A DNA stretch of 64,000 bases from the NCBI RefSeq assembly GCF_050320075.1, contig NZ_CP190018.1. One strand, written 5' to 3'. Origin of the DNA: Escherichia coli. Lineage in GTDB: Bacteria > Pseudomonadota > Gammaproteobacteria > Enterobacterales > Enterobacteriaceae. The notes under the pieces are model-generated. The model did no database searches. It saw nothing but the letters and a program-made list of their open reading frames with translations, and had not been told where the DNA came from. Made by a program: the position numbers and the translations under genes. Below, piece by piece: positions 5,585-60,829 of the stretch. Positions within the stretch are counted from its first letter, which is position 1, and each line of letters begins with the position of its first letter.

Positions 5585-5770
5585 ATGCTGATTCTGACTC
5601 GTCGAGTTGGTGAGACCCTCATGATTGGGGATGAGGTCACCGTGACAGTTTTAGGGGTAAAGGGCAACCAGGTACGTATTGGCGTAAATGCCCCGAAGGA
5701 AGTTTCTGTTCACCGTGAAGAGATCTACCAGCGTATCCAGGCTGAAAAATCCCAGCAGTCCAGTTACTAA
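5585..5770 (+). CDS. csrA: Carbon storage regulator CsrA
   Basis: 61-aa [51 protein letters not shown].. Confidence 0.98.
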
Positions 5771-5777
5771 TCTTTCC

Positions 5778-5803
5778 GCGTCTCATCTTTATCGGTGAGA
5801 CGC
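5778..5803 (+). terminator. Hairpin downstream of csrA (possible terminator)
   Basis: Inverted repeat GCGTCTCA..TGAGACGC just after the csrA stop; no clear U-run, so weak. Confidence 0.3.
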
Positions 5804-6086
5804 ACCCCTCAAAATATCTCCTTCACTCCATTGTCTTTTCGCTTTACTCCCGTTCATTCAACTTAAGTCTCCATTTTTTTGCATTACTGCTATCTGACAG
5901 ACCTCCGTTTTTCTGTTGATAAAACACTCTTTTTGACGTTTTTACAGACTAATTGAGCGTGAAGTGTGCAAACGATAAAAGTGTGGGAAAAATTGTTTGA
6001 CTTATAAGTCTCAGAAAGTAATATGTGCGCCACGCAGCGACGATGAGCGATAAACAAGTTCTTCGAAGCACTCGTAAGAGGCGTGT

Positions 6087-6179
6087 GGTGAGGTGGCCGA
6101 GAGGCTGAAGGCGCTCCCCTGCTAAGGGAGTATGCGGTCAAAAGCTGCATCCGGGGTTCGAATCCCCGCCTCACCGCCA
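6087..6179 (+). tRNA. serV: tRNA-Ser (anticodon GCU)
   Basis: 93-nt sequence GGTGAGGTGGCCGAG..CGCCTCACCGCCA with long variable arm, anticodon loop CUGCUAA, 3' CCA. Confidence 0.95.
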
Positions 6180-6182
6180 TTT

Positions 6183-6259
6183 GCATCCGTAGCTCAGCTG
6201 GATAGAGTACTCGGCTACGAACCGAGCGGTCGGAGGTTCGAATCCTCCCGGATGCACCA
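6183..6259 (+). tRNA. argV: tRNA-Arg (anticodon ACG), copy 1
   Basis: 77-nt GCATCCGTAGCTCAGCTGGATAGAGTACTCGGCTACGAACCGAG..GGATGCACCA. Confidence 0.95.
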
Positions 6260-6370
6260 TATTCTACGTACTTTCAGCGATGAAGGTATGGAAGAGGTGG
6301 CGGTAATAACCGCAGGCACCAGGGAGGATAACGTTGCTTTAGCAACGGCCCGAAGGGCGAGCCGCAAGGC

Positions 6371-6393
6371 GAGTAATCCTCCCGGATGCACCA
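6371..6393 (+). pseudogene. tRNA 3'-end fragment (T-arm/acceptor remnant) inside the tRNA-Arg array spacer
   Basis: GAGTAATCCTCCCGGATGCACCA mimics the last ~20 nt of the adjacent tRNA-Arg and is followed by a normal inter-tRNA spacer. Confidence 0.5.
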
Positions 6394-6457
6394 TCTCTTA
6401 CTTGATACGGCTTTAGTAGCGGTATCAAAAAATCTGCAGTAAAGTAAGTTTCCCGAT

Positions 6458-6534
6458 GCATCCGTAGCTCAGCTGGATAGAGTACTCGGCTACGAACCGA
6501 GCGGTCGGAGGTTCGAATCCTCCCGGATGCACCA
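6458..6534 (+). tRNA. argY: tRNA-Arg (ACG), copy 2
   Basis: Identical 77-nt tRNA-Arg sequence. Confidence 0.95.
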
Positions 6535-6596
6535 TCTCTTACTTGATATGGCTTTAGCAGCGGTATCAATATCAGCAGTAAAATAAATTTCCCGAT

Positions 6597-6673
6597 GCAT
6601 CCGTAGCTCAGCTGGATAGAGTACTCGGCTACGAACCGAGCGGTCGGAGGTTCGAATCCTCCCGGATGCACCA
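6597..6673 (+). tRNA. argZ: tRNA-Arg (ACG), copy 3
   Basis: Identical 77-nt tRNA-Arg sequence. Confidence 0.95.
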
Positions 6674-6775
6674 TATTCTCCGTAATCATCAGTGATGATG
6701 GTTAAGATGGATTTTCTTATTTGATATGGCTTTAGTAGCGGTATCAATATCAGCAGTAAAATAAGTTTTCCCGAT

Positions 6776-6852
6776 GCATCCGTAGCTCAGCTGGATAGAG
6801 TACTCGGCTACGAACCGAGCGGTCGGAGGTTCGAATCCTCCCGGATGCACCA
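6776..6852 (+). tRNA. argQ: tRNA-Arg (ACG), copy 4
   Basis: Identical 77-nt tRNA-Arg sequence. Confidence 0.95.
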
Positions 6853-6999
6853 TCTTCTCCAAAAAATTTCCTTCAAAAATATCTCATTTCTAAATAACTA
6901 CTTTATCCATTTCCTGAATTTTCTTCTCCTTCGCCATCAGCGACAAAATCAAGCAATTACGCTAAAGTAGCGTCATATTTTTCGACTTGCGAGAAGACC

Positions 7000-7566
7000 A
7001 TGTACGAGCGTTATGCAGGTTTAATTTTTGATATGGATGGCACCATCCTGGATACCGAGCCTACGCACCGTAAAGCGTGGCGCGAAGTATTAGGGCACTA
7101 CGGTCTTCAGTACGATGTTCAGGCGATGATTGCGCTTAATGGCTCGCCCACCTGGCGTATTGCTCAGGCGATTATTGAGCTGAATCAGGCCGATCTCGAC
7201 CCGCATGCGTTAGCGCGTGAAAAAACAGAAGCAGTAAGAAGTATGCTGCTGGATAGTGTCGAGCCGCTTCCTCTTGTTGAAGTGGTGAAAAGCTGGCATG
7301 GTCGTCGCCCAATGGCTGTAGGAACGGGGAGTGAAAGCGCCATCGCTGAGGCATTGCTGGCGCACCTGGGATTACGCCGTTATTTTGACGCCGTCGTCGC
7401 TGCTGATCACGTCAAACACCATAAACCCGCGCCAGACACATTTTTGTTGTGCGCGCAGCGTATGGGCGTGCAACCGACACAGTGTGTGGTCTTTGAAGAT
7501 GCCGATTTCGGTATTCAGGCGGCCCGTGCAGCAGGCATGGACGCTGTGGATGTTCGCTTGCTGTGA
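7000..7566 (+). CDS. yqaB: HAD-family sugar phosphatase (fructose-1-phosphate phosphatase)
   Basis: 188-aa ORF with HAD motif FDMDGTILDTE; synteny. Confidence 0.9.
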   Translation: MYERYAGLIFDMDGTILDTEPTHRKAWREVLGHYGLQYDVQAMIALNGSPTWRIAQAIIELNQADLDPHALAREKTEAVRSMLLDSVEPLPLVEVVKSWHGRRPMAVGTGSESAIAEALLAHLGLRRYFDAVVAADHVKHHKPAPDTFLLCAQRMGVQPTQCVVFEDADFGIQAARAAGMDAVDVRLL

Positions 7567-7991
7567 GTGAAGCGTTATCGCTTTTCTCGTTGTTTGCCAG
7601 TAGTTTTCTCAGCGCTACACTATTACCCGGCAACTCCGAAGTCGTGCTGGTGGCAATGTTGCTTTCCGGGATCAGTCATCCCTGGGTTTTAGTTTTAACA
7701 GCAACAATGGGTAATAGCCTTGGAGGGTTAACTAACGTTATCCTTGGGCGTTTCTTTCCATTGCGTAAAACATCGCGCTGGCAAGAGAAAGCTACCGGCT
7801 GGCTGAAACGCTATGGTGCAGTCACGCTATTATTAAGCTGGATGCCCGTGGTTGGCGATTTACTGTGTCTGTTAGCGGGATGGATGCGCATCTCCTGGGG
7901 GCCGGTAATCTTTTTTTTGTGCCTTGGTAAAGCGTTACGCTATGTTGCAGTTGCAGCAGCGACCGTTCAGGGCATGATGTGGTGGCACTAA
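7563..7991 (+). CDS. yqaA: DedA/SNARE-associated family inner membrane protein
   Basis: 142-aa hydrophobic ORF overlapping the yqaB stop by 4 nt. Confidence 0.85.
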   Translation: MSEALSLFSLFASSFLSATLLPGNSEVVLVAMLLSGISHPWVLVLTATMGNSLGGLTNVILGRFFPLRKTSRWQEKATGWLKRYGAVTLLLSWMPVVGDLLCLLAGWMRISWGPVIFFLCLGKALRYVAVAAATVQGMMWWH

Positions 7992-8036
7992 TTGTAGGCC
8001 TGCACATATGGTCACCATTACAGTTATGCTAATTAA

Positions 8037-9620
<1,584 letters not shown>

Positions 9621-9627
9621 CAGAAAA

Positions 9628-9700
9628 GAAAAAGGCCACTCGTGAGTGGCCAAAATTTCATCTCTGAATTCAGGGATGATGATAACAAATGCGCGTCTTT
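9628..9700 (-). ncRNA. micA: MicA (SraD) Hfq-dependent small RNA
   Basis: Minus strand reads GAAAGACGCGCATTTGTTATCATCATCCCTGAATTCAGAGATGAAATTTTGGCCACTCACGAGTGGCCTTTTT, ending in a terminator hairpin; sits between gshA and luxS. Confidence 0.85.
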
Positions 9701-9769
9701 CATATACTCAGACTCGCCTGGGAAGAAAGAGTTCAGAAAATTTTTAAAAAAATTACCGGAGGTGGCTAA

Positions 9770-10285
9770 ATGCCGTTGTTAGATAGCTTCACAGTCGATC
9801 ATACCCGGATGGAAGCGCCTGCAGTTCGGGTGGCGAAAACAATGAACACCCCGCATGGCGACGCAATCACCGTGTTCGATCTGCGCTTCTGCGTGCCGAA
9901 CAAAGAAGTGATGCCAGAAAGAGGGATCCATACCCTGGAGCACCTGTTTGCTGGTTTTATGCGTAACCATCTTAACGGTAATGGTGTAGAGATTATCGAT
10001 ATCTCGCCAATGGGCTGCCGCACCGGTTTTTATATGAGTCTGATTGGTACGCCAGATGAGCAGCGTGTTGCTGATGCCTGGAAAGCGGCAATGGAAGACG
10101 TGCTGAAAGTGCAGGATCAGAATCAGATCCCGGAACTGAACGTCTACCAGTGTGGCACTTACCAGATGCACTCGTTGCAGGAAGCGCAGGATATTGCGCG
10201 TAGCATTCTGGAACGTGACGTGCGCATCAACAGCAACGAAGAACTGGCGCTGCCGAAAGAGAAGTTGCAGGAACTGCACATCTAG
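9770..10285 (+). CDS. luxS: S-ribosylhomocysteine lyase (AI-2 synthase)
   Basis: 171-aa [26 protein letters not shown].. with HTLEH metal motif. Confidence 0.97.
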
Positions 10286-10310
10286 TCAGTAAACTATCTT
10301 CACAATTAAT

Positions 10311-10345
10311 TGAAAAAAGCCAGTTCAAATGAACTGGCTTAGTTG
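10311..10345. terminator. Bidirectional terminator between luxS and emrB
   Basis: Hairpin GCCAGTTCAAATGAACTGGC flanked by an A-run upstream and T-rich sequence downstream. Confidence 0.6.
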
Positions 10346-10348
10346 TAC

Positions 10349-11887
10349 TTAGTGCGCACCACCTCCGCCGCCACCTGCGCCAAATGGCGGTTTAGCAAAC
10401 CACACCAGCCCCAGCAAGACGAGGAATATCCCGGCTGACATCCAGAAGATCTCATTGGCGGAAATAATCAGCCCCTGATTGGTGATCTGCTGGGCAATCC
10501 AGCCTGATGCCTGCTGTTGCGTCATTCCCAGTCCTTCCAGTTGACTGTACATCGCCTGGGCGTTTGGGTTAAACGGGTTTACCGACTCGGTTAACTGCGC
10601 ATGGTGCATCGACTCGCGGTTGGTCCACATGGTTGTGGTTATCGACGTGCCGATAGACCCCGCCAGCGTACGCGTAAAGTTGGAGAGGCTCGATGCCGCC
10701 GCCAGTCGTTCCGGTGGCAAACCAGACAGCGTAATGGTGGTCAGCGGCATAAAGAAGCAGGCCACCGCAAACCCCTGGATAAACTGCGGCCAGGCCGACG
10801 CGCCAAAATCCATACCCGGTTCAAAGGTATAGGCACGCCAGTAGAAGCAGACGGCATACATAATAAAGCTGAAGGTTACCAGCCGCCGCATATCCAGTTT
10901 ATGCGCGAAGCGGCCGATAATCGGCGACAGGATCACCGGAATAATTCCTACCGGCGCAGAGGCCAGACCTGCCCACGTTGCCGTGTAACCGTAGACCTCC
11001 TGCAACAACTGCGGCAGCAGAACAATAGCGCCGAAGTAGAGCATATACGCGAGGCTGATACACAAACAGCCGATGGTGAAGTTGCGCGACTTAAACAACG
11101 ACAGATCGACTATCGGGTTATCGTCGGTCAGCTCCCAGACAATCAGGAAGCAGATAGCCACCACTGCCACCACGGTAAGGATGATAATTTCCTGTGATGA
11201 AAACCAGTCCAGCTCTTTACCGCGGTCGAGCATAATCTGCAGGCTACCGATACCAATAACCAGCAGTGCCAGCCCCACGGCATCAATCCGCCGCCGTTCG
11301 GTGCGGGTTTCACGTCCGCGCAGGGTTTGCAGTGTCATCAACACCACCGCCACGCCAATCGGTACGTTGATGAAGAATATCCAGCCCCAGTGGTAATTGT
11401 CACTGATATACCCGCCGAGGATCGGGCCGCAAATTGGCGCAACAATCACCGTCATCGACCACAACGCCAGCGCGATCGAGCGTTTGGCTGGCGGGTAGTT
11501 ATTCAGCAATAGACTTTGCGAAAGCGGAATTAACGGCCCGGCGACAATCCCCTGAATCACGCGGAAGAAAATCAGCATATTCAGGCTGCTGGAGACACCA
11601 CACGCCCACGACGCAATAGCAAAGGCGATGGTGGACCAGAGGAACAGTTTCACTTCCCCGACGCGCTTTGCCAGCCAGCCGGTAAGCGGGATCGAGATGG
11701 CATTCGCCACCCCGAAAGAAGTGATTACCCACGTTCCCTGGCTGAGCGATGAGCCCAGATTCCCGGCGATAGTGGGGATCGCCACGTTAGCAATGGTGGA
11801 GTCCAGCACCTGCATGAATGTCGCCAGTGACAGCGCAATCGTCATAATGACCAGTTGCGCGCCTTCCAGCGGTTTTTGCTGTTGCAT
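10349..11887 (-). CDS. emrB: Multidrug efflux MFS transporter EmrB
   Basis: Track ORF 10349..11896; internal ATG gives 512 aa MQQQKPLEGAQLVIMTIALSLATFMQVLD.. Confidence 0.95.
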   Translation of the reverse strand: MQQQKPLEGAQLVIMTIALSLATFMQVLDSTIANVAIPTIAGNLGSSLSQGTWVITSFGVANAISIPLTGWLAKRVGEVKLFLWSTIAFAIASWACGVSSSLNMLIFFRVIQGIVAGPLIPLSQSLLLNNYPPAKRSIALALWSMTVIVAPICGPILGGYISDNYHWGWIFFINVPIGVAVVLMTLQTLRGRETRTERRRIDAVGLALLVIGIGSLQIMLDRGKELDWFSSQEIIILTVVAVVAICFLIVWELTDDNPIVDLSLFKSRNFTIGCLCISLAYMLYFGAIVLLPQLLQEVYGYTATWAGLASAPVGIIPVILSPIIGRFAHKLDMRRLVTFSFIMYAVCFYWRAYTFEPGMDFGASAWPQFIQGFAVACFFMPLTTITLSGLPPERLAAASSLSNFTRTLAGSIGTSITTTMWTNRESMHHAQLTESVNPFNPNAQAMYSQLEGLGMTQQQASGWIAQQITNQGLIISANEIFWMSAGIFLVLLGLVWFAKPPFGAGGGGGGAH

Positions 11888-49090: not shown

Positions 49091-51424
49091 TCAGGCTGTT
49101 GCAGGGTCGTCACATTTTGGCAGCCAGTCGCCGTAGCTTTCCTCTTTCAGCGTCAGGTTGGTCTGTATCCCCTGTTTGGTATGGCGCTTCTCGTAATTCA
49201 GTCCGTATTCCTTCAGCATCACCGGCAGCCCCAGCCCGAACATTTTCAGACTGAGTACGTTCCGGTAGCCGTTTGCCTCCATGTAGGCCAGATAGGCGTG
49301 ATAGAGGTATTTACGGTAATTGCGCGGGATGATGCTGGCGTTCCCCATATACATGCCGCTGGTCTGCGGCAGGGTTTCCAGATAGCCGATAAAATCAAAC
49401 GTCGGGTCGGCATCCCGTTTGATGTTCAGCGCCTCGTCTGAGTTCTGCTGGGACTGAAGCAGTGACCGGGCGAGCATCGGGTCGCTGAACTTCTGCATCA
49501 GGTGACGCACGATGACCGCCAGCTCGCGGGTGATTTTGTCCTTAAGCTGCGGGTCGCGCTCCTGCGGGGCTATCTGTTCCGGGAAGTGAATAATCACCCG
49601 CCGGCGTGACACGCCGCCGCTGCGGTCGGTGAAGCGCATCGGGTTATTGTTCACGGCCAGAATTACCGCCGGGATATGCGTGGAGTATGCATCCCGGTAT
49701 TTCGGGTCAACGGACACCGCATCGCCGCCGGTGATGGCCTTGAGTCCGGCACCGTCGCCGCTCCATTTTTCCTGGTCCGGCAGGCGTATCAGTGAGAAGC
49801 CAGTTAACGCGGCACGTTCACGCGGGGATTCCAGCGTCTCGATGGTGGCCGACGTGGCGTTATCCTCACCGGCCAGCAGGGTGGCTATTTCGGCCATGAT
49901 ACTTTTGCCGCTGCCGCCGGGACCGGTCACCTCCAGAAAGAGCTGCCAGTCGTAGCGGTTTGCCAGCACCATAAACAGTGCGGCCAGAATCACGTCGCGT
50001 TTTTCCGCACGACCACCGGCGGCACGGTCAAGCCAGCGCCAGAACGCGGGGGCGTGGGTTTCCAGCGTTTCCCCTTCCACCGGCGGGGTGAAATCCACAT
50101 CGCACAGGGTGCGCATCCAGTGTGACGGACTGTGCGGGTGGAACGTGCCGCTCTGCGTGTCGAGCACGCCGTTACGAAAGCCAATCAGGCGGCGGGAGGG
50201 GGCTTCCTGCTGCGGAATAATCAGCTTCAGGGTGTCCACCACGGAGGCCACCTTCCCGGAGGAGAACGGCGCGCGCAGACGCTGAAACAGCCCGGCCACA
50301 TCCCGGGCAAAGTCCTGTGGTGGCAGCACCTTCCAGACACCATTTTCATAACGGGACAGAAGCTGGCCGTTGGCATCAACCGCGAGCGCCTCGCCGTAAT
50401 GCTCATAGATACGCATGGCCTTTTCGCTGGTACTCATGGCGGAAAACTCCGCTTCGCTCATGGTGTCGAACGGGCTTTCAGCCGGTGGCCGGATGGCATC
50501 ATAAATGGCCTTACGGGTGGCTTCCCCGCCGTACTGCGTGAAGGCATCATTCCAGTCACCGAAGACCGGCGGCAGGGCAACAACACCTTCACACGCATCT
50601 GCGGCTGCGGCGGCTTTTTTCTGGCCGTCACCGCTGAGGTCACGGTCAGCAGCAAGGACAATCTGACAGGCCGGATGCTTCTGCCGGGCAAGGCTGGCCA
50701 GAGAAAGGAGATTCACGGAAGAAAGCGCCACCATCACCGTTTCACCGGTCAGGTGATGCACGGTAAGTGCGGTCGCGTATCCCTCCGCTATCCACAGACG
50801 TTTTCCGGCCTGATTCTGTCCTTCAAGGGTGTGACAGGTGCCCCTGACCTGTCCGCCTTTCAGGGTGCGCTTACGGCCGTCAGCACTGATTAACTGAAGG
50901 TTAACCAGTTCGCCGCTGTCGTCATACAGTGGCACCACAAGGTCACCGGCGCGCCAGCTCACGCCACCGGCTCTGTGTGTGCCGGTCAGCATCCGGCATT
51001 CCCGGCCGGGAAAGCCCTTGCGGGTCAGGTAGGCGTTACCGGTTCCGGGACGGGTTTTCGCCATCAGGGTTTGTGCCAGTGCGGCGGCGTTCTTCCGGGC
51101 AGCGTCTGTTTCAGCACCGGCGGCGGTCGTCACTGCCGGGTCAGCCGGGGGCAGGCTGCCGGTCACGGCAGCCACCTTTGCGGCCGCGTCGGACGGGGAA
51201 ACACCAAACACCTTTTCAACCAGTTTCAGGCCGTCACCGGCACCACACTGATTGCAGTACCAGGTGCCGCGCCCCTCCCTGTCATCAAAACGGAAGCGGT
51301 CACTCCCGCCACAGACCGGACAGGGCTGATGACGGTTCTTCAGCACCTGAATCCCCAGCGCCGGGAGAATACGCGGCCAGTGGCCGAGCGCATGGCTGAC
51401 GGTGGCGGTTACGTTCATTTTCAT
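49091..51424 (-). CDS. P4 alpha-like primase/helicase (replication protein)
   Basis: 777-aa ORF; N-terminal zinc motif CPVCGG..YCNQCG, toprim-like region, central Walker A GPGGSGKS; strong SD AAGGAG upstream. Confidence 0.9.
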   Translation of the reverse strand: MKMNVTATVSHALGHWPRILPALGIQVLKNRHQPCPVCGGSDRFRFDDREGRGTWYCNQCGAGDGLKLVEKVFGVSPSDAAAKVAAVTGSLPPADPAVTTAAGAETDAARKNAAALAQTLMAKTRPGTGNAYLTRKGFPGRECRMLTGTHRAGGVSWRAGDLVVPLYDDSGELVNLQLISADGRKRTLKGGQVRGTCHTLEGQNQAGKRLWIAEGYATALTVHHLTGETVMVALSSVNLLSLASLARQKHPACQIVLAADRDLSGDGQKKAAAAADACEGVVALPPVFGDWNDAFTQYGGEATRKAIYDAIRPPAESPFDTMSEAEFSAMSTSEKAMRIYEHYGEALAVDANGQLLSRYENGVWKVLPPQDFARDVAGLFQRLRAPFSSGKVASVVDTLKLIIPQQEAPSRRLIGFRNGVLDTQSGTFHPHSPSHWMRTLCDVDFTPPVEGETLETHAPAFWRWLDRAAGGRAEKRDVILAALFMVLANRYDWQLFLEVTGPGGSGKSIMAEIATLLAGEDNATSATIETLESPRERAALTGFSLIRLPDQEKWSGDGAGLKAITGGDAVSVDPKYRDAYSTHIPAVILAVNNNPMRFTDRSGGVSRRRVIIHFPEQIAPQERDPQLKDKITRELAVIVRHLMQKFSDPMLARSLLQSQQNSDEALNIKRDADPTFDFIGYLETLPQTSGMYMGNASIIPRNYRKYLYHAYLAYMEANGYRNVLSLKMFGLGLPVMLKEYGLNYEKRHTKQGIQTNLTLKEESYGDWLPKCDDPATA

Positions 51425-51438
51425 GGTGTTGTTCTCCT

Positions 51439-51759
51439 TCAGTGCAGTACCGGCGCTTTTATGTGACGGGCACAGAGTTCATCCATCACAACCAGCCCGA
51501 GAAAGGACAGCGACGGCGCGGCCTTCAGGGGGCCGGATTCCATTAAATCTTCCAGCAGGGCACAGGCTATCTGACGCCCTTTTTCCTCACCGTGCTGGCG
51601 CAGATAAAAGCCTTCCAGCTCAGCGGCGATGGCCGCCTCCAGTGATTCAAGGGTGAGATGCGGGTAGCGGTGCTGACGTTCGCACACGGTCAGCCAGGCA
51701 CAGGCGACAGCGCGACGGTAAAGGGCAGCGCGTAAGACGGGCGGTAAGGGTGTTTTCAT
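51439..51759 (-). CDS. 106-aa protein upstream of alpha (P4 orf106/Cnr-like by position and size)
   Basis: ORF with GGAGG SD 7 nt upstream; ends 14 bp before the alpha start; functional name is from recalled P4 gene order only. Confidence 0.6.
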
Positions 51760-51894
51760 TTGCTTTCCTCCCTGTGACAGATGACTGCATTCCGTGCCGG
51801 TTGCATTAACTGATAAGGCATATCTGCGTCTCCTGAAGACGTGCGTATCCCTGCGCGAATACGCACATTTAATTTTTCGGGTGTCGTTTTTTAA

Positions 51895-52350
51895 TTACAG
51901 ATAATTGCGGTAACTGTTATCCGGGGTGATTTCCGGGTCAGACTCCGTGCGGGGAATTTCCCGCCATTCCCGCGCCACCGGTGCCGCCCGGCTGACCGGA
52001 ACAGGGGCCTGCGGGTAAATATCCAGATATTTCTCCCGCCATTTCTGTAATTCCGGGTCTCCGGCCATTTCTTTCAGTACCGCATGCCGGTTTACGGGGC
52101 TGCGTTTAAACAGGTCAGGACGGTCACAGGTAAATTCCCGCAGAAAACGCCCCAGCGGGATGTCTGTGGTGCGTCCGTCAGCGAGGATACGCACAAGGAT
52201 ACTGAATTTACGGCGGTACGGGTTCCAGACAATGTCCGGGCAGCGGTACGGCATTTCCCACGGAATACCGTCTTCCAGAATGCCGACCACGGCCACATCG
52301 GGAAAACCGGCAGAACGGTAAATCTCACCGGGCTGGGGAAAATCAAACAT
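51895..52350 (-). CDS. 151-aa hypothetical protein (P4 orf151-like)
   Basis: Start ATG overlaps the stop of the upstream gene (ATGTTTGA); same operon. Confidence 0.6.
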   Translation of the reverse strand: MFDFPQPGEIYRSAGFPDVAVVGILEDGIPWEMPYRCPDIVWNPYRRKFSILVRILADGRTTDIPLGRFLREFTCDRPDLFKRSPVNRHAVLKEMAGDPELQKWREKYLDIYPQAPVPVSRAAPVAREWREIPRTESDPEITPDNSYRNYL

Positions 52351-52630
52351 GCGTCCTGTCTCCCCGGTCTTTCTGCTGGGCGAGAAAATCGCGGCACAGG
52401 CCTTTGGCTTTCAGCTCATTCAGCACAAAATCAATATCTTCATTCAGGTAGCTGAAAATATGCGGAATGTAGAGCTGATGCAGGCCGGAGAGTTCACGGT
52501 GAATCAAATCACCCCCAACAAACTGGGATACGGCGCTGGCGCGGTTGAGCTTATGGTAAGCCTCAATGCTGAGGTGTTCACGGGCGTCATGACGCGCTGA
52601 GACGGTCTGAGGGGCTTTTTTATTACGCAC
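52343..52630 (-). CDS. 95-aa hypothetical protein, GTG start (possibly P4 epsilon-like)
   Basis: Track ORF 52343..52915 has an implausible N-terminus overlapping the upstream gene; GTG at 52630 is preceded by GGAGG at 6-nt spacing, giving [28 protein letters not shown].. Confidence 0.5.
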
Positions 52631-53222
52631 GGGACACCTCCACCACCGGCAGACGGGCAGCAAGGGAGAGCACATAGTCACGGACAAGGGAACGGCGGGC
52701 ACTGCGTTCATCACCGGCGACGGTGCGAAGCATACAGATACGGGGATGACGGTCTGCGCGACGGACAGCCGCAAACACAAAGACAAATTCAGGGTGTGAG
52801 GGGGTAAGGGTTGTAGCCATGATGGCAGCCTCCTGTGAATAGCAAATAACGCTATCGCCGGAGTTCTCACGCTCGATGGCGATAGCCCAGACGGGGGTGA
52901 GAATACCGGCTTCACAGGATACCGGCCAGCCCGGAGGCTGCCCCGCCTGAGCTACCATTGACTCTGCGGCATAATGAGCGGACGCGGGCAGGATGCACGG
53001 AATGCCATCTGCACGACTGACCACACACCACACCATAATCTGGCGCTCTGTGGCATTGATTGCGACACAAAAAAAGACGCGTGGCGCGTCATATGTCGCC
53101 TGTGAATTGCTCGGGTTCTCACGCCCGGCTGCCGATTTTGCGGCAGCGGAAAAACTATATCCGCAAATGCCGGAAAAAGGCAAGCCAGAAAAAGGGACTT
53201 TTTGCAGAGCGGGCATCATCAT
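52623..53222 (-). CDS. 199-aa hypothetical protein (P4 orf199-like)
   Basis: ATGATGATG at 53222-53214 overlaps the vis stop (ATGA coupling); track ORF 52623..53267 extends into vis in another frame. Confidence 0.5.
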
Positions 53223-53485
53223 GCGTCGTACCCCCGTTTGCGTCCGGCAATGCGCCCGGCCATCCATGCGGTGACTTCAGAGTGCAGCCAGGCCACATTT
53301 TTACCGCCAAGACTCACCTGCGGCGGAAATTCCCCTTTACGGATGAGTTCATAGATGGTCGAGCGTGACAGGCCGCACAGGTGCATCACTTCCGGCAGAC
53401 GTAAAAAACGCTCCTGCGTGATGTCCGGCAGCGGCATCAGTGGCGTCACAGGGGCGGGAGACGGGGAAGAAAAAACAGCTTGCAT
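53219..53485 (-). CDS. AlpA/Vis-family phage regulator (excisionase-like HTH), 88 aa
   Basis: ..[44 protein letters not shown].. AlpA-type HTH; first gene of the leftward operon. Confidence 0.8.
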
Positions 53486-53587
53486 CGGGCTACCTCGTTA
53501 ATGTCCATACAGCACCGGATAAGTCCGTCCGGCTTCGGGTAGCGCTTTATTTTGTGAATATTTTCAGCAGACGCAACAGGGGGGATT

Positions 53588-53605
53588 TGTTCCGGCAGTC
53601 TTACA
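53588..53605 (-). promoter_or_regulatory. TGT-N12-ACA dyad (Ogr/Delta activator-type box) upstream of the vis-alpha operon
   Basis: TGTTCCGGCAGTCTTACA about 100 bp upstream of the vis start; dyad geometry as in P2/P4 late promoters. Confidence 0.45.
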
Positions 53606-53764
53606 ATGGCTGTGTATTTTTTGTTCATCTCCACTTAAAGTCATTTAAAGCCACTTAAAGCAATTCGTAATTTTTATAGTGAAATACAAATCGTTTTTTC
53701 TTATTCATTCCCGGCGAATTAATAAAAACAAACAGTAATAAACAGCACAAAAAGCCCATCAACG

Positions 53765-53869
53765 GGTGAACAGTGGTGAACAGACGGTGAACAGTCATTA
53801 CTGCGATTGTTCACCCTTTAACTTACTGTATTACTTATCTTTTTTATTAAGGTGAACAGAGGTGAACAG
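53765..53869. repeat. Iteron cluster (GGTGAACAG x5 direct, 1 inverted), ori-like
   Basis: GGTGAACAG at 53765, 53775, 53786, 53851, 53861; inverted TGTTCACC at 53808-53815; same 8-mer as the cluster at 48948-49040. Confidence 0.8.
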
Positions 53870-53948
53870 TAAAATATAAAAAAAACAAACAGTAAGCCGG
53901 TTTTTCCTGCGACCTTTTCCTGGCTTGCCGGTCTGAGGATGAGTCTCC

Positions 53949-53966
53949 TGTGTCAGGGCTGGCACA
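53949..53966 (+). promoter_or_regulatory. TGT-N12-ACA dyad (Delta/Ogr box) of the sid promoter
   Basis: TGTGTCAGGGCTGGCACA centred ~80 bp upstream of the sid ATG. Confidence 0.45.
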
Positions 53967-54038
53967 TCTGCAATGCGTCGTGTTGTTGTCCGGTGTACGT
54001 CACAATTTTCTTAACCTGAAGTGACGAGGAGCCGGAAA

Positions 54039-54773
54039 ATGTCTGACAACACCATCCCTGAATATCTGCAACCCGCGCTGGCACAACTGGAAAAGGCCAG
54101 AGCCGCCCATCTTGAGAACGCCCGCCTGATGGATGAGACCGTCACGGCCATTGAACGGGCAGAACAGGAAAAAAATGCGCTGGCGCAGGCCGACGGAAAC
54201 GACGCTGACGACTGGCGCACGGCCTTTCGTGCAGCCGGTGGTGTCCTGAGCGACGAGCTGAAACAGCGCCACATTGAGCGCGTGGCACGCCGGGAGCTGG
54301 TACAGGAATATGACAATCTGGCCGTGGTGCTGAATTTTGAACGTGAACGCCTGAAAGGGGCGTGTGACAGCACGGCCACCGCCTACCGGAAGGCACATCA
54401 TCACCTGCTGAGTCTGTATGCAGAGCATGAGCTGGAACACGCCCTGAATGAAACCTGTGAGGCGCTTGTCCGGGCAATGCATCTGAGCATCCAGGTACAG
54501 GAAAATCCGCTCGCCAACACCACCGGCCATCAGGGCTACGTCGCGCCGGAAAAGGCTGTCATGCAGCAGGTGAAATCATCGCTGGAGCAGAAAATTAAAC
54601 AGATGCAAATCAGCCTCACCGGCGAGCCGGTTCTCCGGCTGACCGGACTGTCAGCGGCAACACTCCCGCACATGGATTATGAGGTGGCAGGCACACCGGC
54701 ACAGCGCAAGGTGTGGCAGGACAAAATAGACCAGCAGGGAGCAGAGCTTAAGGCCAGAGGACTGCTGTCATGA
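54039..54773 (+). CDS. sid: P4 Sid-like capsid size-determination (external scaffold) protein, 244 aa
   Basis: Start MSDNTIPEYLQPALAQLEK.. inside track ORF 54021..54773; coiled-coil-rich; stop overlaps the delta start (ATGA). Confidence 0.8.
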   Translation: MSDNTIPEYLQPALAQLEKARAAHLENARLMDETVTAIERAEQEKNALAQADGNDADDWRTAFRAAGGVLSDELKQRHIERVARRELVQEYDNLAVVLNFERERLKGACDSTATAYRKAHHHLLSLYAEHELEHALNETCEALVRAMHLSIQVQENPLANTTGHQGYVAPEKAVMQQVKSSLEQKIKQMQISLTGEPVLRLTGLSAATLPHMDYEVAGTPAQRKVWQDKIDQQGAELKARGLLS

Positions 54774-55270
54774 TTTACTGCCCGTCGTGTGGACATGTTG
54801 CTCACACCCGTCGCGCACATTTCATGGACGATGGCACCAAGATAATGATTGCACAGTGCCGGAATATTTATTGCTCTGCGACATTTGAAGCGAGTGAAAG
54901 CTTTTTCTCTGACAGTAAAGATTCAGGAATGGAATACATTTCAGGCAAACAGAGATACCGCGATTCACTGACGTCGGCCTCCGGCAGTATGAAACGCCCG
55001 AAAAGAATGCTTGTTACCGGATATTGTTGTCGGAGATGTAAAGGCCTTGCGCTGTCAAGAACATCGCGGCGTCTGTCTCAGGAAGTCACCGAGCGTTTTT
55101 ATGTGTGCACGGATCCGGGCTGTGGTCTGGTGTTTAAAACGCTTCAGACCATCACCCGCTTCATTGTCCGCCCGGTCACGCCGGACGAACTGGCAGAAAA
55201 CCTGCATGAAAAACAGGAACTGCCGCCAGTACGGTTAAAAACACAATCATATTCGCTGCGTCTGGAATGA
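54770..55270 (+). CDS. P4 Delta-like late-gene activator (tandem Ogr-type zinc fingers), 166 aa
   Basis: Two Cys4 motifs (CPSCGH..CRNIYC and CCRRCKG..CTDPGCG). Confidence 0.85.
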   Translation: MIYCPSCGHVAHTRRAHFMDDGTKIMIAQCRNIYCSATFEASESFFSDSKDSGMEYISGKQRYRDSLTSASGSMKRPKRMLVTGYCCRRCKGLALSRTSRRLSQEVTERFYVCTDPGCGLVFKTLQTITRFIVRPVTPDELAENLHEKQELPPVRLKTQSYSLRLE

Positions 55271-55343
55271 GGGCTGCCGGTTAACACCGGCCGTCGCCAC
55301 ACACCGTATTTTTATTCTTCAGCATGATGAGAAAGAGATAACG

Positions 55344-55916
55344 ATGGAAAGCACAGCCTTACAGCAGGCCTTTGACACCTGTCAGAATAACAAAGCAGCA
55401 TGGCTGCAACGCAAAAATGAGCTGACTGCGGCCGAACAGGAATATCTGCGGCTTCTGTCAGGAGAAGGCAGAAACGTCAGTCACCTGGACGAATTACGCA
55501 ATATTATCGAAGTCAGAAAATGGCAGGTGAATCAGGCCGCCGGTCGTTATATTCGTTCGCATGAAGCCGTTCAGCACATCAGCATCCGCGACCGGCTGAA
55601 TGATTTTATGCAGCAGCACGGCACAGTACTGGCGGCCGCACTGGCACCGGAGCTGATGGGCTACAGTGAGCTGACGGCCATTGCCCGAAACTGTGCCATA
55701 CAGCGTGCCACAGATGCCCTGCGTGAAGCCCTTCTGTCCTGGCTTGCGAAGGGTGAAAAAATTAATTATTCCGTACAGGATAGCGACATTTTAACGACCA
55801 TCGGATTCAGGCCTGACGCGGCTTCGGTGGATGACAGCCGTGAAAAATTCACCCCTGCGCAGAACATGATTTTTTCGCGCAAAAGTGCGCAACTGGCATC
55901 ACATCAGTCTGTGTAA
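55344..55916 (+). CDS. psu: P4 Psu-like polarity suppression / capsid decoration protein, 190 aa
   Basis: 190-aa ORF following sid and delta; lengths 244/166/190 match my recollection of P4. Confidence 0.8.
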   Translation: MESTALQQAFDTCQNNKAAWLQRKNELTAAEQEYLRLLSGEGRNVSHLDELRNIIEVRKWQVNQAAGRYIRSHEAVQHISIRDRLNDFMQQHGTVLAAALAPELMGYSELTAIARNCAIQRATDALREALLSWLAKGEKINYSVQDSDILTTIGFRPDAASVDDSREKFTPAQNMIFSRKSAQLASHQSV

Positions 55917-55950
55917 AACTCCCCGAAAATCCGCCCGTTTTTACTGAAAA

Positions 55951-55983
55951 AAGCCATGCATCGATAAGGTGCATGGCTTTGCA
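55951..55983 (+). terminator. Intrinsic terminator after psu
   Basis: Hairpin GCCATGCATCGATAAGGTGCATGGC followed by TTT. Confidence 0.6.
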
Positions 55984-56080
55984 TGCGTTTTCCTGCCTCA
56001 TTTTCTGCAAACCGTGCCATTCCCGGCGCGGTCTGAGCGTGTCAGTACAACTGCATTAAAACCGCCCCGCAAAGCGGGCG

Positions 56081-56099
56081 GGCGAGGCGGGGAAAGCAC
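56081..56099. other. cos site (P2/P4-type 19-nt cohesive end sequence)
   Basis: GGCGAGGCGGGGAAAGCAC inside a GC-rich palindromic context (AAACCGCCCCGCAAAGCGGGCGGGCGAGGCGGGG..); matches the P2/P4 cohesive end as I recall it. Confidence 0.7.
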
Positions 56100-56303
56100 C
56101 GCGCGCTAAACCTGATGAATAAGGAATATTTTAAAAACATTTGTGGATATGAATATTTGGGTTGTAAATGAGTGTTTTTATCTGTTTTTATGTGCTGTGA
56201 AGCAATGTTTGAGTCGATATTTTTATAAAGCTCAATAAAAATTACATTATCATTGATAAGAATGGTTGTCGGATTAACACGTTTTTAAGCTATTTATATA
56301 TAA

Positions 56304-56349: not shown

Positions 56350-59076
56350 TTAGTTGATTAGGTGTGACTCAGTTGCAGAGTGACCTTTTTTTGTCCTAAC
56401 AAACTTGATAGCAAGTGTTTTTCCTCTAATGTAATTAGACCAGTTATATTTTTCTTCACCAAGGCAACTGTCCCTATGAATTAATATTTCTTTTCCATCA
56501 GAATCTCTGGCAAAAACAAATCCTTTTCCTAATGTAAGATCTGAATATATTTCTGCTATAGAATATCCATTATTTTTCCATGTGATTTGTTCGAATTCGG
56601 CAATTGTTTTAGATGAGCTAAAAGCACTCCATTTGGGGGAGGTGAATGGGTTGTTTGGTATTTTTGTTGCTCTCATTGTTGAAATGATATTAACTACTTC
56701 TTTACTTGATATCTTAAAATCTTTAGAGAACTTTGTAATGTCGGCAAGATTGCTTTCAGCAAAATCAATTACTTTTATAATGAATTGTTGAGATAGTTTA
56801 TCAATGTTGTTTTTGATCGTGTCACAAAAAAGATTTAAAGATTTAATAGCTTCGTCAGAAAGTCGATCGCTGATGTTTTCTTTTTCAAATATAAATTCCA
56901 ATATGTCGATAACTTCAGATATGTTTTTTTCTACAGACTCAGGGTTAATGTCGAAGTTATTTTCACAAGAACGCTTTAATGCGGCGACTCTAAAGTAAGC
57001 TTGCTCTTGAGGTGAATGTGAATCTTTCCATTTTTCAGTGTATTCAAGAATGTCTGGGTATTCTTTACCATAAAGATGAACACCTAAATACTCTCGCATT
57101 ATTATAGAAGACAGTACTTCGCCTGAATGCTCAACTCTGTCGAATCCAGAATCAATCAATTCCTGAGATACTTTTTGAGCCTCTATAAAATCACCAATAT
57201 CTTTATAGATATACATCAGAGTTAAGTTGTTTAGTGGATTTTCAGACTCTATGCCTATTGCTGACTTTATACAAGAAATAGCACCTAAATTATCACCCTG
57301 CTTATGTAGTATTCTGGCATATGTTCGCATAAATAGAGGATTTTTTTGATATATTTGAGCGAGTGTTTTAAAATCCTCATAAATAACATTTAATTTATCT
57401 TTGTTAACGCTTTTGTAGCCTAAAATTTTATTTGCTCTGTTAACAGCTATTTGCAAGGAGTCAGGGCTATTATTAGGGATGAATCGATAATCAAACCGAT
57501 CTATTTCTTTATCTTGTTGGAATTTTTGTAAGTGCAATATTTCAGTTCGTTGTTTTCTTGCTTTTTCAGCAATAATGTTTCTGACGGTGTTATTTCTTGG
57601 TGATGTGATTAATAGTTCTTTGATTGATTCACTTAAAGAAAACTCTTCTTCTCCCGTATTAGATGTTTTCCGGGATACTAAAGATGTGTTCAATATTTCT
57701 TTAATCGCTTTTGCTATTGAGTCGGGATCTGAATCTAAGAAATGAGTTAAAAATGATCTTGATGATGCTCCGGTGACAAACAAGCATTCAAGAATAGATA
57801 TTGCATCGTTACTTAAAACATCTAATAGATTATTAAATGAAAATGCAGCGATATCTTTTTTGGATTTTTCTATTGAGTCAGGTAAAGCCATTCCATTATA
57901 AATGGAATCTATTGTAAGCCTTATTGCTAAGGGGTTAAAATGAGTCACTTCAGTAATTCTCGTGAGTTCTTCTGGGGTTAAGTTTATTATCCCTCGTTTA
58001 TCTGAATATGATTTGGCTAGATGGAAAGCCACACCAGATTGCAATTCCTTAAGTGAAATTGGGTAAGCTCCGTCAACCATTATTCGACTAGTGACTACCA
58101 CTTTAAAATTCGAAGGAAGAGTATACTGGAAACGAATGAACTCATCAGGACCATCTCTTAATAAAGTTTCGAGATTATCGATACATAGGAGAGTGCTTTC
58201 TATATCTTGGTCGTTTATAATTTCTGAATATAGATCATCATAGTTTTCTATCTCTTCATCAGGATTAAAAAACTCCACTATTTCTTTTTTTATTTCAGAA
58301 ATGGTGTCAATGTTTTTTAACTCAGAAATACCATCAGCAGTGAGATGATGTTTCTTTAATGTTAAATAGCAAATGTTTTTGAATTTCTCATTGGCTTTTG
58401 GTGAGATGCTCAATTCTTTTAAGAAATCTAAAATTAAAGCGGTTTTTCCTACGCCTCCAGGAGCTACAACCGCAATGAATGGAGTTCGATCGTTATTTAT
58501 TGCTGATAATAACTCTTTCTTTTCACCTTTACGGCCTATAAGGCTGGTAATGTCGTGATCAAATTTATCAGGCAGGTTGTTATTAATTTCCCAGCTAATA
58601 GTAGAAAACCATTCTTCTGGAGGTGCTTTTAATTGACCAGTAGATGCGGAATAATAAGCATCCTTCACACTTTTTAAACCAAGTACTTCTATATATGGAT
58701 GTGAGGCTATAGCTGCAGCGCAATGCCAGTAATGCTCATGGAATGGTCGGGTTGGATGACTAATTTGATTTCTTATAAAAAATAAATCAACAGCTGTACA
58801 GAACTCTTTCAGTTCTGACAGTTTATCATAGTCAGATGTACCCTTAGCTAATTGCAGGGCATAATTGAAAATTTCACCGATATAACTTGCTTGGATAAGA
58901 GTTTGCGTATTGAAAACGGGACCTCTCCCACGCTCCAGTTCTAGTTTAGAACGAGGTTCGAAATGTTCGCTTAACCTACTTTTACCTCCTGCATCCTCAC
59001 TAACAACATACGCCGCCAATGCTTTTTCTAAGGCATAAACTATCATACTAGTTTTCGTATCAAGATATTCAGACAT
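56350..59076 (-). CDS. STAND (NB-ARC-type) NTPase with N-terminal effector-like domain, helical repeat region and C-terminal beta domain; candidate antiphage defence protein
   Basis: 908-aa AT-rich ORF with SD AAGGA; LIGRKGEKKEL..IAVVAPGGVGKTALIL (Walker A), LLCIDNLE (Walker B), KVVVTSR (RNBS-B-like), HFNPLAIRL (GLPL-like); N-terminal IRNQISH (Rx4H); C-terminal GKGFVFARDSDGKEILIH. Confidence 0.8.
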   Translation of the reverse strand: MSEYLDTKTSMIVYALEKALAAYVVSEDAGGKSRLSEHFEPRSKLELERGRGPVFNTQTLIQASYIGEIFNYALQLAKGTSDYDKLSELKEFCTAVDLFFIRNQISHPTRPFHEHYWHCAAAIASHPYIEVLGLKSVKDAYYSASTGQLKAPPEEWFSTISWEINNNLPDKFDHDITSLIGRKGEKKELLSAINNDRTPFIAVVAPGGVGKTALILDFLKELSISPKANEKFKNICYLTLKKHHLTADGISELKNIDTISEIKKEIVEFFNPDEEIENYDDLYSEIINDQDIESTLLCIDNLETLLRDGPDEFIRFQYTLPSNFKVVVTSRIMVDGAYPISLKELQSGVAFHLAKSYSDKRGIINLTPEELTRITEVTHFNPLAIRLTIDSIYNGMALPDSIEKSKKDIAAFSFNNLLDVLSNDAISILECLFVTGASSRSFLTHFLDSDPDSIAKAIKEILNTSLVSRKTSNTGEEEFSLSESIKELLITSPRNNTVRNIIAEKARKQRTEILHLQKFQQDKEIDRFDYRFIPNNSPDSLQIAVNRANKILGYKSVNKDKLNVIYEDFKTLAQIYQKNPLFMRTYARILHKQGDNLGAISCIKSAIGIESENPLNNLTLMYIYKDIGDFIEAQKVSQELIDSGFDRVEHSGEVLSSIIMREYLGVHLYGKEYPDILEYTEKWKDSHSPQEQAYFRVAALKRSCENNFDINPESVEKNISEVIDILEFIFEKENISDRLSDEAIKSLNLFCDTIKNNIDKLSQQFIIKVIDFAESNLADITKFSKDFKISSKEVVNIISTMRATKIPNNPFTSPKWSAFSSSKTIAEFEQITWKNNGYSIAEIYSDLTLGKGFVFARDSDGKEILIHRDSCLGEEKYNWSNYIRGKTLAIKFVRTKKGHSATESHLIN

Positions 59077-59094: not shown

Positions 59095-60282
59095 TTAAAG
59101 AGTGGTTTGCAATCCCCACCAATTCATTAACTCTATACGTTGTTCTAAATAGGTACTTCTATTGTAAGCTTTTCGAACCTCATTCCTCTCGGAATGCGCC
59201 AATGCTGCTTCAATAACATCAGGATTAAATTCTGCTTCGTTCATTGCCGTACTGGCAATTGATCTTAGTCCATGGGCCACTAACTTACCGCCATAACCTA
59301 TTCTCTTCAAGGCAGCGTTTGCCGTCTGACTGTTCATCGGCTGTTTTGGATCGTTTCTGCTCGGGAAAATATGTTCACGGTGACCACTGATAGGCTTCAT
59401 TACTTCCAAAATACCTAAAGCCTGAGGTGACAAAGGGACAATGTGTTCACGTTTAGCCTTCATTCGTTCGGCGGGAATCGTCCAGAGTTTGGCCTCGAGA
59501 TCGATCTCGACCCACCGAGCACCAGAAGCCTCAGAAGGGCGCACTAGGGTCAGGAGCTGCCACTCGATAAGACAGCGAGTCGGAACAGACAGATTCGACA
59601 TTACCAGAGAACGCATCAGCTTAGGTAATTCTTCGGGTCGTAGCGTGGGCATATTCTGCTTTTTGGGTTTCTCAAATGCCATTCCAACACCTGATGCTGG
59701 ATTTGCATCAATTAGACCAGTGTTTACGGCATAAATCATTATCTCGTTAATGCGCTGTACCAGACGACGTACCGTCTCTAGCGCGCCACGTGCTTTGATT
59801 GGTTCGAGGGTTTCAACAAGTGTTCGGGCTTTGATTTGCTGAACAGGGAGCTCACCGATGGCAGGTAATACATCTTTTTCCAGGGAACGCCAAATGTCTT
59901 TCGCGTAATCAGGGGTAACGCTTTTGCTTTTTATCTGGAACCAGTTGGTCGCAACAGTCGAAAAAATACTGTCTAGAGCTATCTGTTGTTGTTCTTCGAT
60001 AAATTCAGCTTGAACTTGTGGGTCTATACCATTAGCCAACAAAGCAAGGTAATCCGCTCTTAACCGTCGAGCATCAGCAAGTGAAAGGGCGGGGAAAGCA
60101 CCAAGCCCCATCATTGTCCGCTGTTTTGTTGCTGGACGTTGATAACGGAAACGCCACAACTTCTTACCGTTCGTTTTAACGAGCAGAAAAAGGCCATCGC
60201 CATCATGTAACGTTAGATCCTTTTCTAACGCTTTAGCGCGCAGAACTTCGGTGTTGGTCAGGGGGCGTGTTGTTCTTGCCAC
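59095..60282 (-). CDS. P4-family tyrosine integrase
   Basis: 395-aa ORF, GTG start with AAGGAG SD; N-terminal arm-binding-like LTNTEVLRAKALEKDLTLHDGDGLFLLVKTNGKKLWRFRY; C-terminal HGLRS..R..Y catalytic region; adjacent to the ssrA 3' end. Confidence 0.9.
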   Translation of the reverse strand: MARTTRPLTNTEVLRAKALEKDLTLHDGDGLFLLVKTNGKKLWRFRYQRPATKQRTMMGLGAFPALSLADARRLRADYLALLANGIDPQVQAEFIEEQQQIALDSIFSTVATNWFQIKSKSVTPDYAKDIWRSLEKDVLPAIGELPVQQIKARTLVETLEPIKARGALETVRRLVQRINEIMIYAVNTGLIDANPASGVGMAFEKPKKQNMPTLRPEELPKLMRSLVMSNLSVPTRCLIEWQLLTLVRPSEASGARWVEIDLEAKLWTIPAERMKAKREHIVPLSPQALGILEVMKPISGHREHIFPSRNDPKQPMNSQTANAALKRIGYGGKLVAHGLRSIASTAMNEAEFNPDVIEAALAHSERNEVRKAYNRSTYLEQRIELMNWWGLQTTL

Positions 60283-60304
60283 TGTGGCCGCTCCTTCATG
60301 AATT

Positions 60305-60352
60305 GGTATACGTGTTTAGGTATACATCCTACCGTATACCTAAACGTATACC
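60305..60352. repeat. Four GGTATAC(G)/CGTATACC motifs in the int promoter region (putative integrase arm-type sites)
   Basis: GGTATACG 60305-60312, GGTATAC 60319-60325, CGTATACC 60333-60340 and 60345-60352; same motif as at 48840-48859. Confidence 0.5.
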
Positions 60353-60466
60353 AATAATCACTGGATTTAGCTGGATATCCTCGGACAATGGTAGACACAA
60401 AAAAGCCCGCAGAGCTTGTGCCATGCGGGCTTTCAGGATTTCTCCGGACGTATCCGGAAGAGCAAG

Positions 60467-60829
60467 TGGTGGAGCTGGCGGGAGTTGAACCCGCGTCCGA
60501 AATTCCTACGTCCTCGGTACTACATGCTTAGTCAGTCTTTACATTCGCTTGCCAGCTGCGGACGGACACGCCACTAACAAACTAGCCTGATTAAGTTTTA
60601 ACGCTTCAACCCCAGGCAGGGCTTCCACGCGATCTCTTTTGGGTTTGACCTCTCTTGATCCCCGTCCTAAGAGCGGAGGCTAGGGAGAGAGGGCTCTAAG
60701 CAGGTTATTAAGCTGCTAAAGCGTAGTTTTCGTCGTTTGCGACTATTTTTTGCGGCTTTTTACGAGGCCAACCGCCCCTCGGCATGCACCTTGGGTTTCG
60801 CAAATCCCGTCGAATCCAGAATCAGCCCC
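60467..60829 (-). ncRNA. ssrA: tmRNA (SsrA), 363 nt
   Basis: Minus strand reads GGGGCTGATTCTGGATTCGACGGGATTTGCGAAACCC..; tag ORF GCAAACGACGAAAACTACGCTTTAGCAGCTTAA (ANDENYALAA*); 3' end ..GCCAGCTCCACCA. Confidence 0.97.

Follow-up and report, generated by a model that had tools for sequence, protein, structure and literature searches.

The window, by which we mean the whole 64-kb stretch of Escherichia coli DNA analysed here, carries a tmRNA gene, ssrA, identified with ARAGORN, whose 3′ end holds a 15-bp core repeat, TGGTGGAGCTGGCGG. A second copy of this repeat lies at some distance, and the two copies delimit an 11.7-kb genomic island (Table 1). The genes of the island, assigned from PHROG matches, are those for the alpha primase-helicase, orf106, orf151, epsilon/Icd, Vis, Sid, Delta, Psu, a 908-aa cargo protein and a 395-aa integrase (Int). 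With this P4 gene set, a cos site and the crr/ori repeats, the island is a P4-like satellite; Sid, Psu and an Icd-like protein are among the products that RefSeq annotates in identical islands. The integrase gene int lies beside one junction and is transcribed away from the core at 60467.

Island and P4 backbone

Window positions 48922-56080 are 98.5% identical to positions 4469-11624 of phage P4 (7.2 kb), and positions 56081-56112 correspond to the P4 cos end (P4 1-31). The gop/beta/cII/int/attP segment of P4 is replaced in the island by a non-P4 segment which is contiguous in the circular form and comprises the cargo, int, the int-side arm, the core and the far arm. Judged by its sequence, the island is phage P4 itself with the cargo-int-attP module exchanged. 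The island carries a single 120-bp crr repeat (48926-49045), as against two in P4; a run of A followed by a run of T (~A9, T11) at 48917-48942, where the P4 homology starts (48922), is kept beside crr in relatives.

The search covered 5,426 complete genomes of E. coli. Seven of them have 80% or more of the island in one piece, at 98-99.8% identity, and 409 have the int-side junction region nearly full-length. The ssrA-targeting variant of P4 is thus carried by hundreds of these genomes, and it also occurs across Enterobacterales.

The 908-aa cargo ORF (56350-59076, minus strand) lies between psu/cos and int, an interval that is a literature-reported defence hotspot of P4-like satellites; in relatives the cargo found there is SIR2, NACHT, DUF262 or AAA+DUF4435. 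RefSeq names the cargo a P-loop NTPase or ATP-binding protein. It matched no PHROG or NCBIfam family, and PADLOC gave a weak match to PDC-S27 (E 2.6e-4, residues 178-221). Outside the island, what appears to be the original ssrA terminator (48610-48637, minus strand) has been displaced to just beyond the other junction, where a 1567-aa ORF (43900-48603, plus strand) also ends; the ORF corresponds to the gene that E. coli HKUOPY1, the source of relative L002 below, has in that position and that is annotated there as a YpjA/EhaD adhesin-like autotransporter. Elsewhere in the window a tRNA cluster (6087-6852) holds one Ser(gct) and four Arg(acg) genes, and an antisense tRNA-Arg(tcg) called by ARAGORN at 6203-6274, overlapping the first Arg gene, is probably a false positive.

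Table 1. Positions of ssrA, int, vis and the attachment-site features in the window
Feature	Position	Strand	Remarks
Core repeat TGGTGGAGCTGGCGG	48764-48778		Other junction; attR of the sequence-only reading
Putative arm site E	48840-48849	-	Far tandem pair with F, 12-bp period
Putative arm site F	48852-48861	-	Far tandem pair with E
vis	53219-53485	-	Excisionase/regulator, 87/88 identical to P4 Vis
int	59095-60282	-	395-aa P4-family tyrosine recombinase, GTG start at 60282
Putative arm site D, TTGGTATACG	60303-60312	+	int-proximal inverted site, 21 bp upstream of the int GTG
Arm-like site C, TAGGTATACA	60317-60326	+	Least conserved copy; overlaps the predicted transcription start
Predicted -10, TAGGAT	60326-60331	-	Between the two inverted pairs; predicted start near 60319
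Putative arm site B, TAGGTATACG	60333-60342	-	Inner tandem member, within the predicted promoter spacer
Putative arm site A, TTGGTATACG	60345-60354	-	Outer tandem member; TTGGTA (60349-60354) is the predicted -35
Two ATCCAG half-sites 10 bp apart	60361-60376	-	CTGGAT on the plus strand at 60361-60366 and 60371-60376
Rho-independent terminator	60399-60433	-	Island-borne, 3′ of the regenerated ssrA end; kept in relatives
Core repeat TGGTGGAGCTGGCGG	60467-60481		ssrA 3′ end, int-side junction; attL of the sequence-only reading
ssrA (tmRNA)	60467-60829	-	ARAGORN

Repeats at both ends of the island

Exact copies of GGTATAC cluster at two places in the window: beside int, at 60305-60311 (+), 60319-60325 (+), 60334-60340 (-) and 60346-60352 (-), and at the far end of the island, at 48841-48847 (-) and 48853-48859 (-), 12 bp apart. 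Their coordinates agree with the sequence-only reading, which had placed four copies in inverted pairs at 60305-60352, between the int start (60282) and attL, and two direct copies at 48840-48859, just inside attR. In all, GGTATAC occurs 10 times in the window, against 4.1 expected from shuffles, and six of the 10 copies lie in the two clusters; the other four are isolated, being an overlapping palindromic pair at 29972/29973 and single copies at 31471 and 60845. The 8-mer GGTATACG has five copies in the 64 kb, every one of them inside the clusters. Four copies of any 7-mer within 50 bp were seen in none of 200 first-order Markov simulations of the window. The sole other 7-mer cluster of the window to match this density, at ~53766, consists of the P4 replication-origin ‘type 1’ repeat (TGTTCAC/GTGAACA), which clusters also at 48940-49045.

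The repeat unit first described, GGTATAC(G), has the right motif but is too short: the full unit is a dimer of ~22 bp, TTGGTATACG-n-TTA-GGTATACG, with three occurrences in the window, at 60303-60326 (+, with 14-bp spacing), 60333-60354 (-) and 48840-48861 (-), the last two of which are identical at 21 of 22 positions. Because GTATAC is palindromic, the orientation of a GGTATAC-type site can be read from the flanking bases only; the orientations given in Table 1 were confirmed by relatives with the asymmetric GGTACAC. Although all four int-side copies are present as claimed, the conserved set numbers three, as it does in P4, the copy at 60319 (in site C) being lineage-specific: it is absent from P4 and degenerate in most GGTACAC-type relatives. 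Site D falls in the predicted 5′ UTR of int and is kept as CGTRTACCAA in nearly all relatives. The E-F pair, 61 bp inward of the core, still belongs to the non-P4 module, the P4 homology beginning at 48922.

Geometry of attP

The attP sequences of the window and of L002, a diverged relative from E. coli, were reconstructed and aligned with that of P4. The P4 record (GenBank X51522) annotates an ‘attP arm sequence repeat’ at 3915-3926 (+), 3942-3953 (-) and 3954-3965 (-), beside the int start, and on the far side at 4151-4162 (-) and 4163-4174 (-), with the P4 core at 4078-4097; the P4 arm motif is TTGGGGGCAT, also written TGGGGGCA or TGGGGGCAT. The window, L002 and P4 share a distance of 133 bp from the int-side tandem pair to the start of the core and a tandem period of 12 bp; from core start to far pair is 77 bp in the window and L002 and 76 bp in P4, and from the inverted site to the tandem pair 29 bp in the window and L002 and 28 bp in P4. 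The DNA between tandem pair and core is moreover homologous with that of P4 (CCAAT..GGATTT..CCTCGGA..AAAAA). With the same distances and a homologous spacer, the window repeats, except for the 60319 copy, occupy the positions of the P4 arm repeats: site D is the positional equivalent of P4 3915-3926, B of 3942-3953 and A of 3954-3965. In the reconstructed attP the arm motif, which is unrelated to the core TGGTGGAGCTGGCGG, flanks the core on either side, at distances of 112-164 bp (D, C, B and A) and 61-83 bp (E and F).

The two ATCCAG half-sites of Table 1 belong to a block, ATCCRG-N4-ATCCRG, that is kept in both motif types described below and in P4 (GTCCGTTGAAATCCGG). Because the block is common to P4, whose Vis is the same, it is a candidate site for Vis (excisionase); it may also, or instead, be a candidate site for IHF. 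Scans with the IHF consensus gave one-mismatch matches only, at 60355-60367 and 48796-48808, which are too weak to assign.

Integrase

Int is 37% identical to P4 Int. Its Pfam domains are Arm-DNA-bind_3 (residues 8-91, E 1.2e-22), Phage_int_M (107-198) and a catalytic domain (213-378). By sequence, the N-terminus matched PDB entry 3JU0 (E 1.5e-18) and also 3JTZ and 3RMP; an AlphaFold (AF2) model of residues 1-110 (pLDDT 88) was matched by Foldseek to the same three structures at an rmsd of 1.0 Å (E 1e-7 to 3e-6). The titles of these PDB entries refer to the ‘arm-type binding domain of HAI7/HPI integrase’ (3JU0/3JTZ) and to ‘recognition of attP substrates by P4-like integrases’ (3RMP).

Motif variants among relatives

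Relatives were taken as 79 loci, from one genome per species, at which the Int homologue shows 55-94% identity; at most of these loci an ssrA core was found ~200 bp upstream of int. The arm architecture is constant while the motif varies: on the int side it is GGTATAC at 39 loci and GGTACAC at 31, and more distant forms are GGCCCAC (L057), GGCATAC (L072) and GTAACAC (L077). Wherever the far end fell within the fetched DNA it carried a tandem pair of 12-bp period, and the first GGTAYAC of that pair was exactly +81 from the core in all relatives with an exact core remnant. Int side and far pair agreed in their variant in 16 of the 19 islands whose far end was in reach (one-sided hypergeometric p ~0.0025 for a 6/1/1/10 table, calculated by hand and uncorrected for the phylogenetic non-independence of the loci). 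The Colwellia island L077 is concordant as well, GTAACAC recurring there as a tandem pair 7.3 kb from int.

In three islands the two ends do not fully agree. The int-side and far motifs disagree (GGTATAC versus GGTACAC) in L016 (Edwardsiella anguillarum) and L076 (Citrobacter amalonaticus), and the far pair of L051 (Serratia sp.) has one of each. We considered whether the other-type far pairs of L016 and L076 belonged to neighbouring tandem islands and rejected this, both being true hybrids; one further apparent exception, L009, was a second island in tandem. L016, L076 and L051 are probably recombinants between tandem or successive satellites. Such discordance would mean either that Int tolerates the one-base difference or that the islands are recombinant and possibly immobile.

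Since no more than ~200 bp separates the int-side arm from the far arm in the circle, plain linkage could explain part of their co-inheritance; given that the identical substitution is found in every copy, ~10 kb apart, inheritance as a block is insufficient by itself. The pattern indicates that one protein reads all repeat copies at both ends.

The Int sequences divide along the same line. Fourteen Int positions separate the GGTATAC and GGTACAC types, 13 of them within residues 4-102 and one at 155, and those that discriminate fully are T4, T11N, V13I, L19Q/R, L23F, M57N and A76D. Identity between the types is 0.65 over residues 1-100 and 0.83 over residues 201-390, the latter equal to the within-type value. 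No difference between the types in identity to the window's proteins was found for Vis, Psu, Sid, alpha, orf106 or the C-terminal half of Int.

A query of IMG/VR with the 21-bp dimer returned 85 occurrences at 80 loci, all 85 in att-arm contexts: 36 just upstream of a related int, 45 with the core at +80 to +82, and four that are decayed versions. Two loci, L004 (4303-4350) and L063 (~250 bp beyond the far pair), have a further island in tandem at the same ssrA core, with a CP4-57 IntA-like integrase of ~50% identity and, upstream of it, GGGACCC/GGGTCCC repeats in a similar arrangement, another ‘dialect’ of arm site.

Predicted int promoter

The island-borne terminator (Table 1) insulates int from ssrA read-through, so the int promoter should lie within ~60398-60283 (~115 bp). 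Related ssrA islands with other integrases have a similar terminator. A generic promoter scan with a 9/12 threshold listed no int promoter; the candidate came instead from the comparative alignment. It is weak in the window (TTGGTA/TAGGAT, 8/12); site A would contain its -35, and site B would lie between the two hexamers. Among 68 anchored relatives TAnnnT stands at a fixed 17 bp from TTGGTA in 66, the hexamers being TATACT (20), TAAGAT (14), TAGGAT (12), TATAAT (11), TAAAAT (5), TAGAAT (3) and TACGAT (1); from the end of the hexamer to the start codon is 38-44 nt, mostly 40-43. The outer site begins TTGGTA in all 68, a count that is not independent because the anchoring pattern itself begins TTGGTA. 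T1, A2 and T6 are constant in the 66 hexamers and the positions between them vary, the pattern that marks a -10 element. The conserved -35/-10 pair built into the repeats is the likely int promoter, and it would overlap the arm sites as the sequence-only reading had proposed.

Interpretation

We hold it highly probable that the GGTATAC repeats are arm-type binding sites of the element's own heterobivalent integrase. The proposal was already made in the sequence-only reading, and it is upheld by the positional identity with P4, the Arm-DNA-bind_3 domain of Int, the concerted change of the motif and its linkage to the Int N-domain; the att-arm contexts of all 85 IMG/VR dimers and the presence of a P4-like Vis beside repeats that differ from those of P4 speak for it too. 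Physical binding by Int, the roles of single sites in integration as against excision, promoter activity and repression we infer, binding and autorepression from homology with P4, KplE1 and PAI I536.

The layout of the circular form would then be int, D, (C), -10, B-A, 112 bp, the 15-bp core, 61 bp, E-F. The N-domain of Int (residues ~8-91) would bind A, B, D, perhaps C, and E and F, and its C-terminal domains would act at the core; bending proteins, plus Vis for excision, would complete the intasome. Upon integration into ssrA, sites D, C, B and A would stay beside int and E-F would go to the other junction. Because the terminator lies just upstream, int would have to be transcribed from within the arm, with its -35 in A, B in the spacer and the start near C. 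Int bound to A and B in the prophage would occlude the -35 and the spacer, and int would be repressed.

The repeats might instead be operators for another protein of the element, chiefly Vis, which is of the AlpA type. Direct repeats spaced by about one helical turn and close to arm sites are the typical targets of recombination directionality factors (PMC7498355), and P4 Vis also represses int expression (PMC2951348). Yet Vis here is the protein of P4 at 87 of 88 residues and the P4 repeats at the same positions are TGGGGGCA; identity of Vis is equal for GGTATAC and GGTACAC loci while the Int N-domain differs; and the ATCCRG-N4-ATCCRG block at 60361-60376, being common to P4, is the better candidate for Vis. 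We therefore regard Vis as a most improbable reader of these repeats, in practice ruled out by P4 having the same Vis but different repeats. Nor does DNA or RNA folding account for the pattern well. The 48-bp inverted repeat could form a hairpin or cruciform, serving for example in control of RNA stability or termination, with matching changes that are compensatory: the region does fold into a long hairpin (-28.5 kcal/mol), and in the GGTACAC-type L002 the outer arms are still complementary (-25 kcal/mol). However, a hairpin leaves unexplained both the exact P4 arm geometry and the far tandem pair, which lies 11.5 kb away and changes in concert; its inner stem (site C against B) is degenerate in most relatives; and with the predicted start inside the repeat the int mRNA would hold one arm only, the terminator preceding the repeat. 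This model, hardly credible overall, was rejected since the far pair is a direct repeat.

A reading closer to the preferred one takes the repeats as genuine recombination arm sites without a part in int regulation, the promoter lying elsewhere or being unaffected by Int. In its favour, Piazzolla et al. are reported to have found in 2006 that P4 int is controlled also after transcription initiation. The promoter, too, is only predicted and is weak in the window, and in KplE1 single arm-site mutations left repression intact (PMC2951348). We nevertheless think this reading unlikely, as the terminator at 60399-60433 leaves ~115 bp for a promoter, 66 of 68 relatives retain T1, A2 and T6 in a hexamer that always stands 17 bp from TTGGTA and varies at its other positions, and autorepression is documented for three related systems (PMC2951348, PMC7286903).

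On the preferred reading, autorepression of int as in P4 and KplE1 is plausible because the predicted and conserved -35/-10 pair overlaps the putative arm sites. The arm repeats of P4 attP and its Int/Vis-repressed promoter Pint were reportedly described by Pierson and Kahn in 1987 and Piazzolla et al. in 2006; the 2006 study is further said to have found the N-terminal part of Int sufficient for repression. P4 Int and Vis repress Pint, and the effect of Int comes from its binding DNA near the start site, as PMC2951348 and PMC7286903 summarise the 2006 work. The KplE1 integrase IntS represses via arm sites overlapping its promoter, a repression that single arm-site mutations do not relieve (PMC2951348), and IntI of PAI I536 represses itself (PMC7286903).

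What follows from the probable arm sites

The analysis gives an attachment-site map for the ssrA-targeting variant of P4, on which the core, the terminator, five conserved putative arm sites, a predicted promoter and a candidate block for Vis/IHF are placed. As the rest of the element is P4, it also presents a natural module swap, from which it is seen that the repeats follow the integrase rather than Vis. With its few discriminating N-domain residues, the split between GGTATAC and GGTACAC provides a simple model for how P4-family arm domains read DNA and for the design of orthogonal integration modules.

More tentatively, and with considerable doubt that it will hold, arm motif and Int N-domain may have co-diverged (GGTATAC, GGTACAC, GTAACAC, GGGACCC and others) into orthogonal modules that share one ssrA core. 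If so, elements stacked at one tmRNA gene would excise independently, each with its own intasome and without cross-recombining; the switch from T to C at motif position 5 would be set by T11N, V13I, L23F, M57N and A76D; and the hybrids L016 and L076 could be trapped recombinants. Tandem arrays were heterotypic in five cases and homotypic in one, the latter with a broken int, though the cases are few.

Comparison with known systems

The closest system is P4 itself, which likewise has one inverted site near the int start, two far-arm sites and an int that reads away from the core. The recognition sequence differs, being GGTATACG, or T[T/A]GGTATACG, in the island and TGGGGGCAT, or TTGGGGGCAT, in P4, as does the target that supplies the core, which is ssrA in the island and tRNA-Leu in P4. 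The extra, non-conserved fourth int-side copy is found in the island only, without a P4 counterpart. The int start codon of the island lies 21 bp beyond the inverted site, whereas that of P4 overlaps it, and the cargo is a 908-aa NTPase in the one and gop/beta/cII in the other. The arm domains of the HPI and HAI7 integrases have the N-terminal fold in common with Int at 36-48% identity, but these integrases serve other islands and other arm sequences.

KplE1 (CPS-53), with IntS and TorI, resembles the island in that int adjoins the junction, reads into the prophage and has arm-type sites overlapping its -35/-10, an overlap that for the island is predicted. Its integrase is of another subfamily, its arm motif is a P′ site containing TAAA, its target is argW and its directionality factor TorI; the regulation of intS has been shown experimentally whereas that of the island int is predicted. 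Phage lambda follows the same logic, its integrase being heterobivalent and its core flanked by arm sites. These number 2 + 3, as do those of the conserved set of the island; however, the P′ sites of lambda are all direct repeats and its N-domain is of another Pfam family. Lambda int is expressed from PI/PL and not from a promoter inside attL (PMC2951348).

Set beside these systems, the island very probably follows a known design, as an ordinary example of P4-family integrase arm sites with a different specificity, and it leaves the general understanding of such integrases unchanged. The small new point that it adds is a one-base split in specificity tied to a few residues of the Int N-domain.
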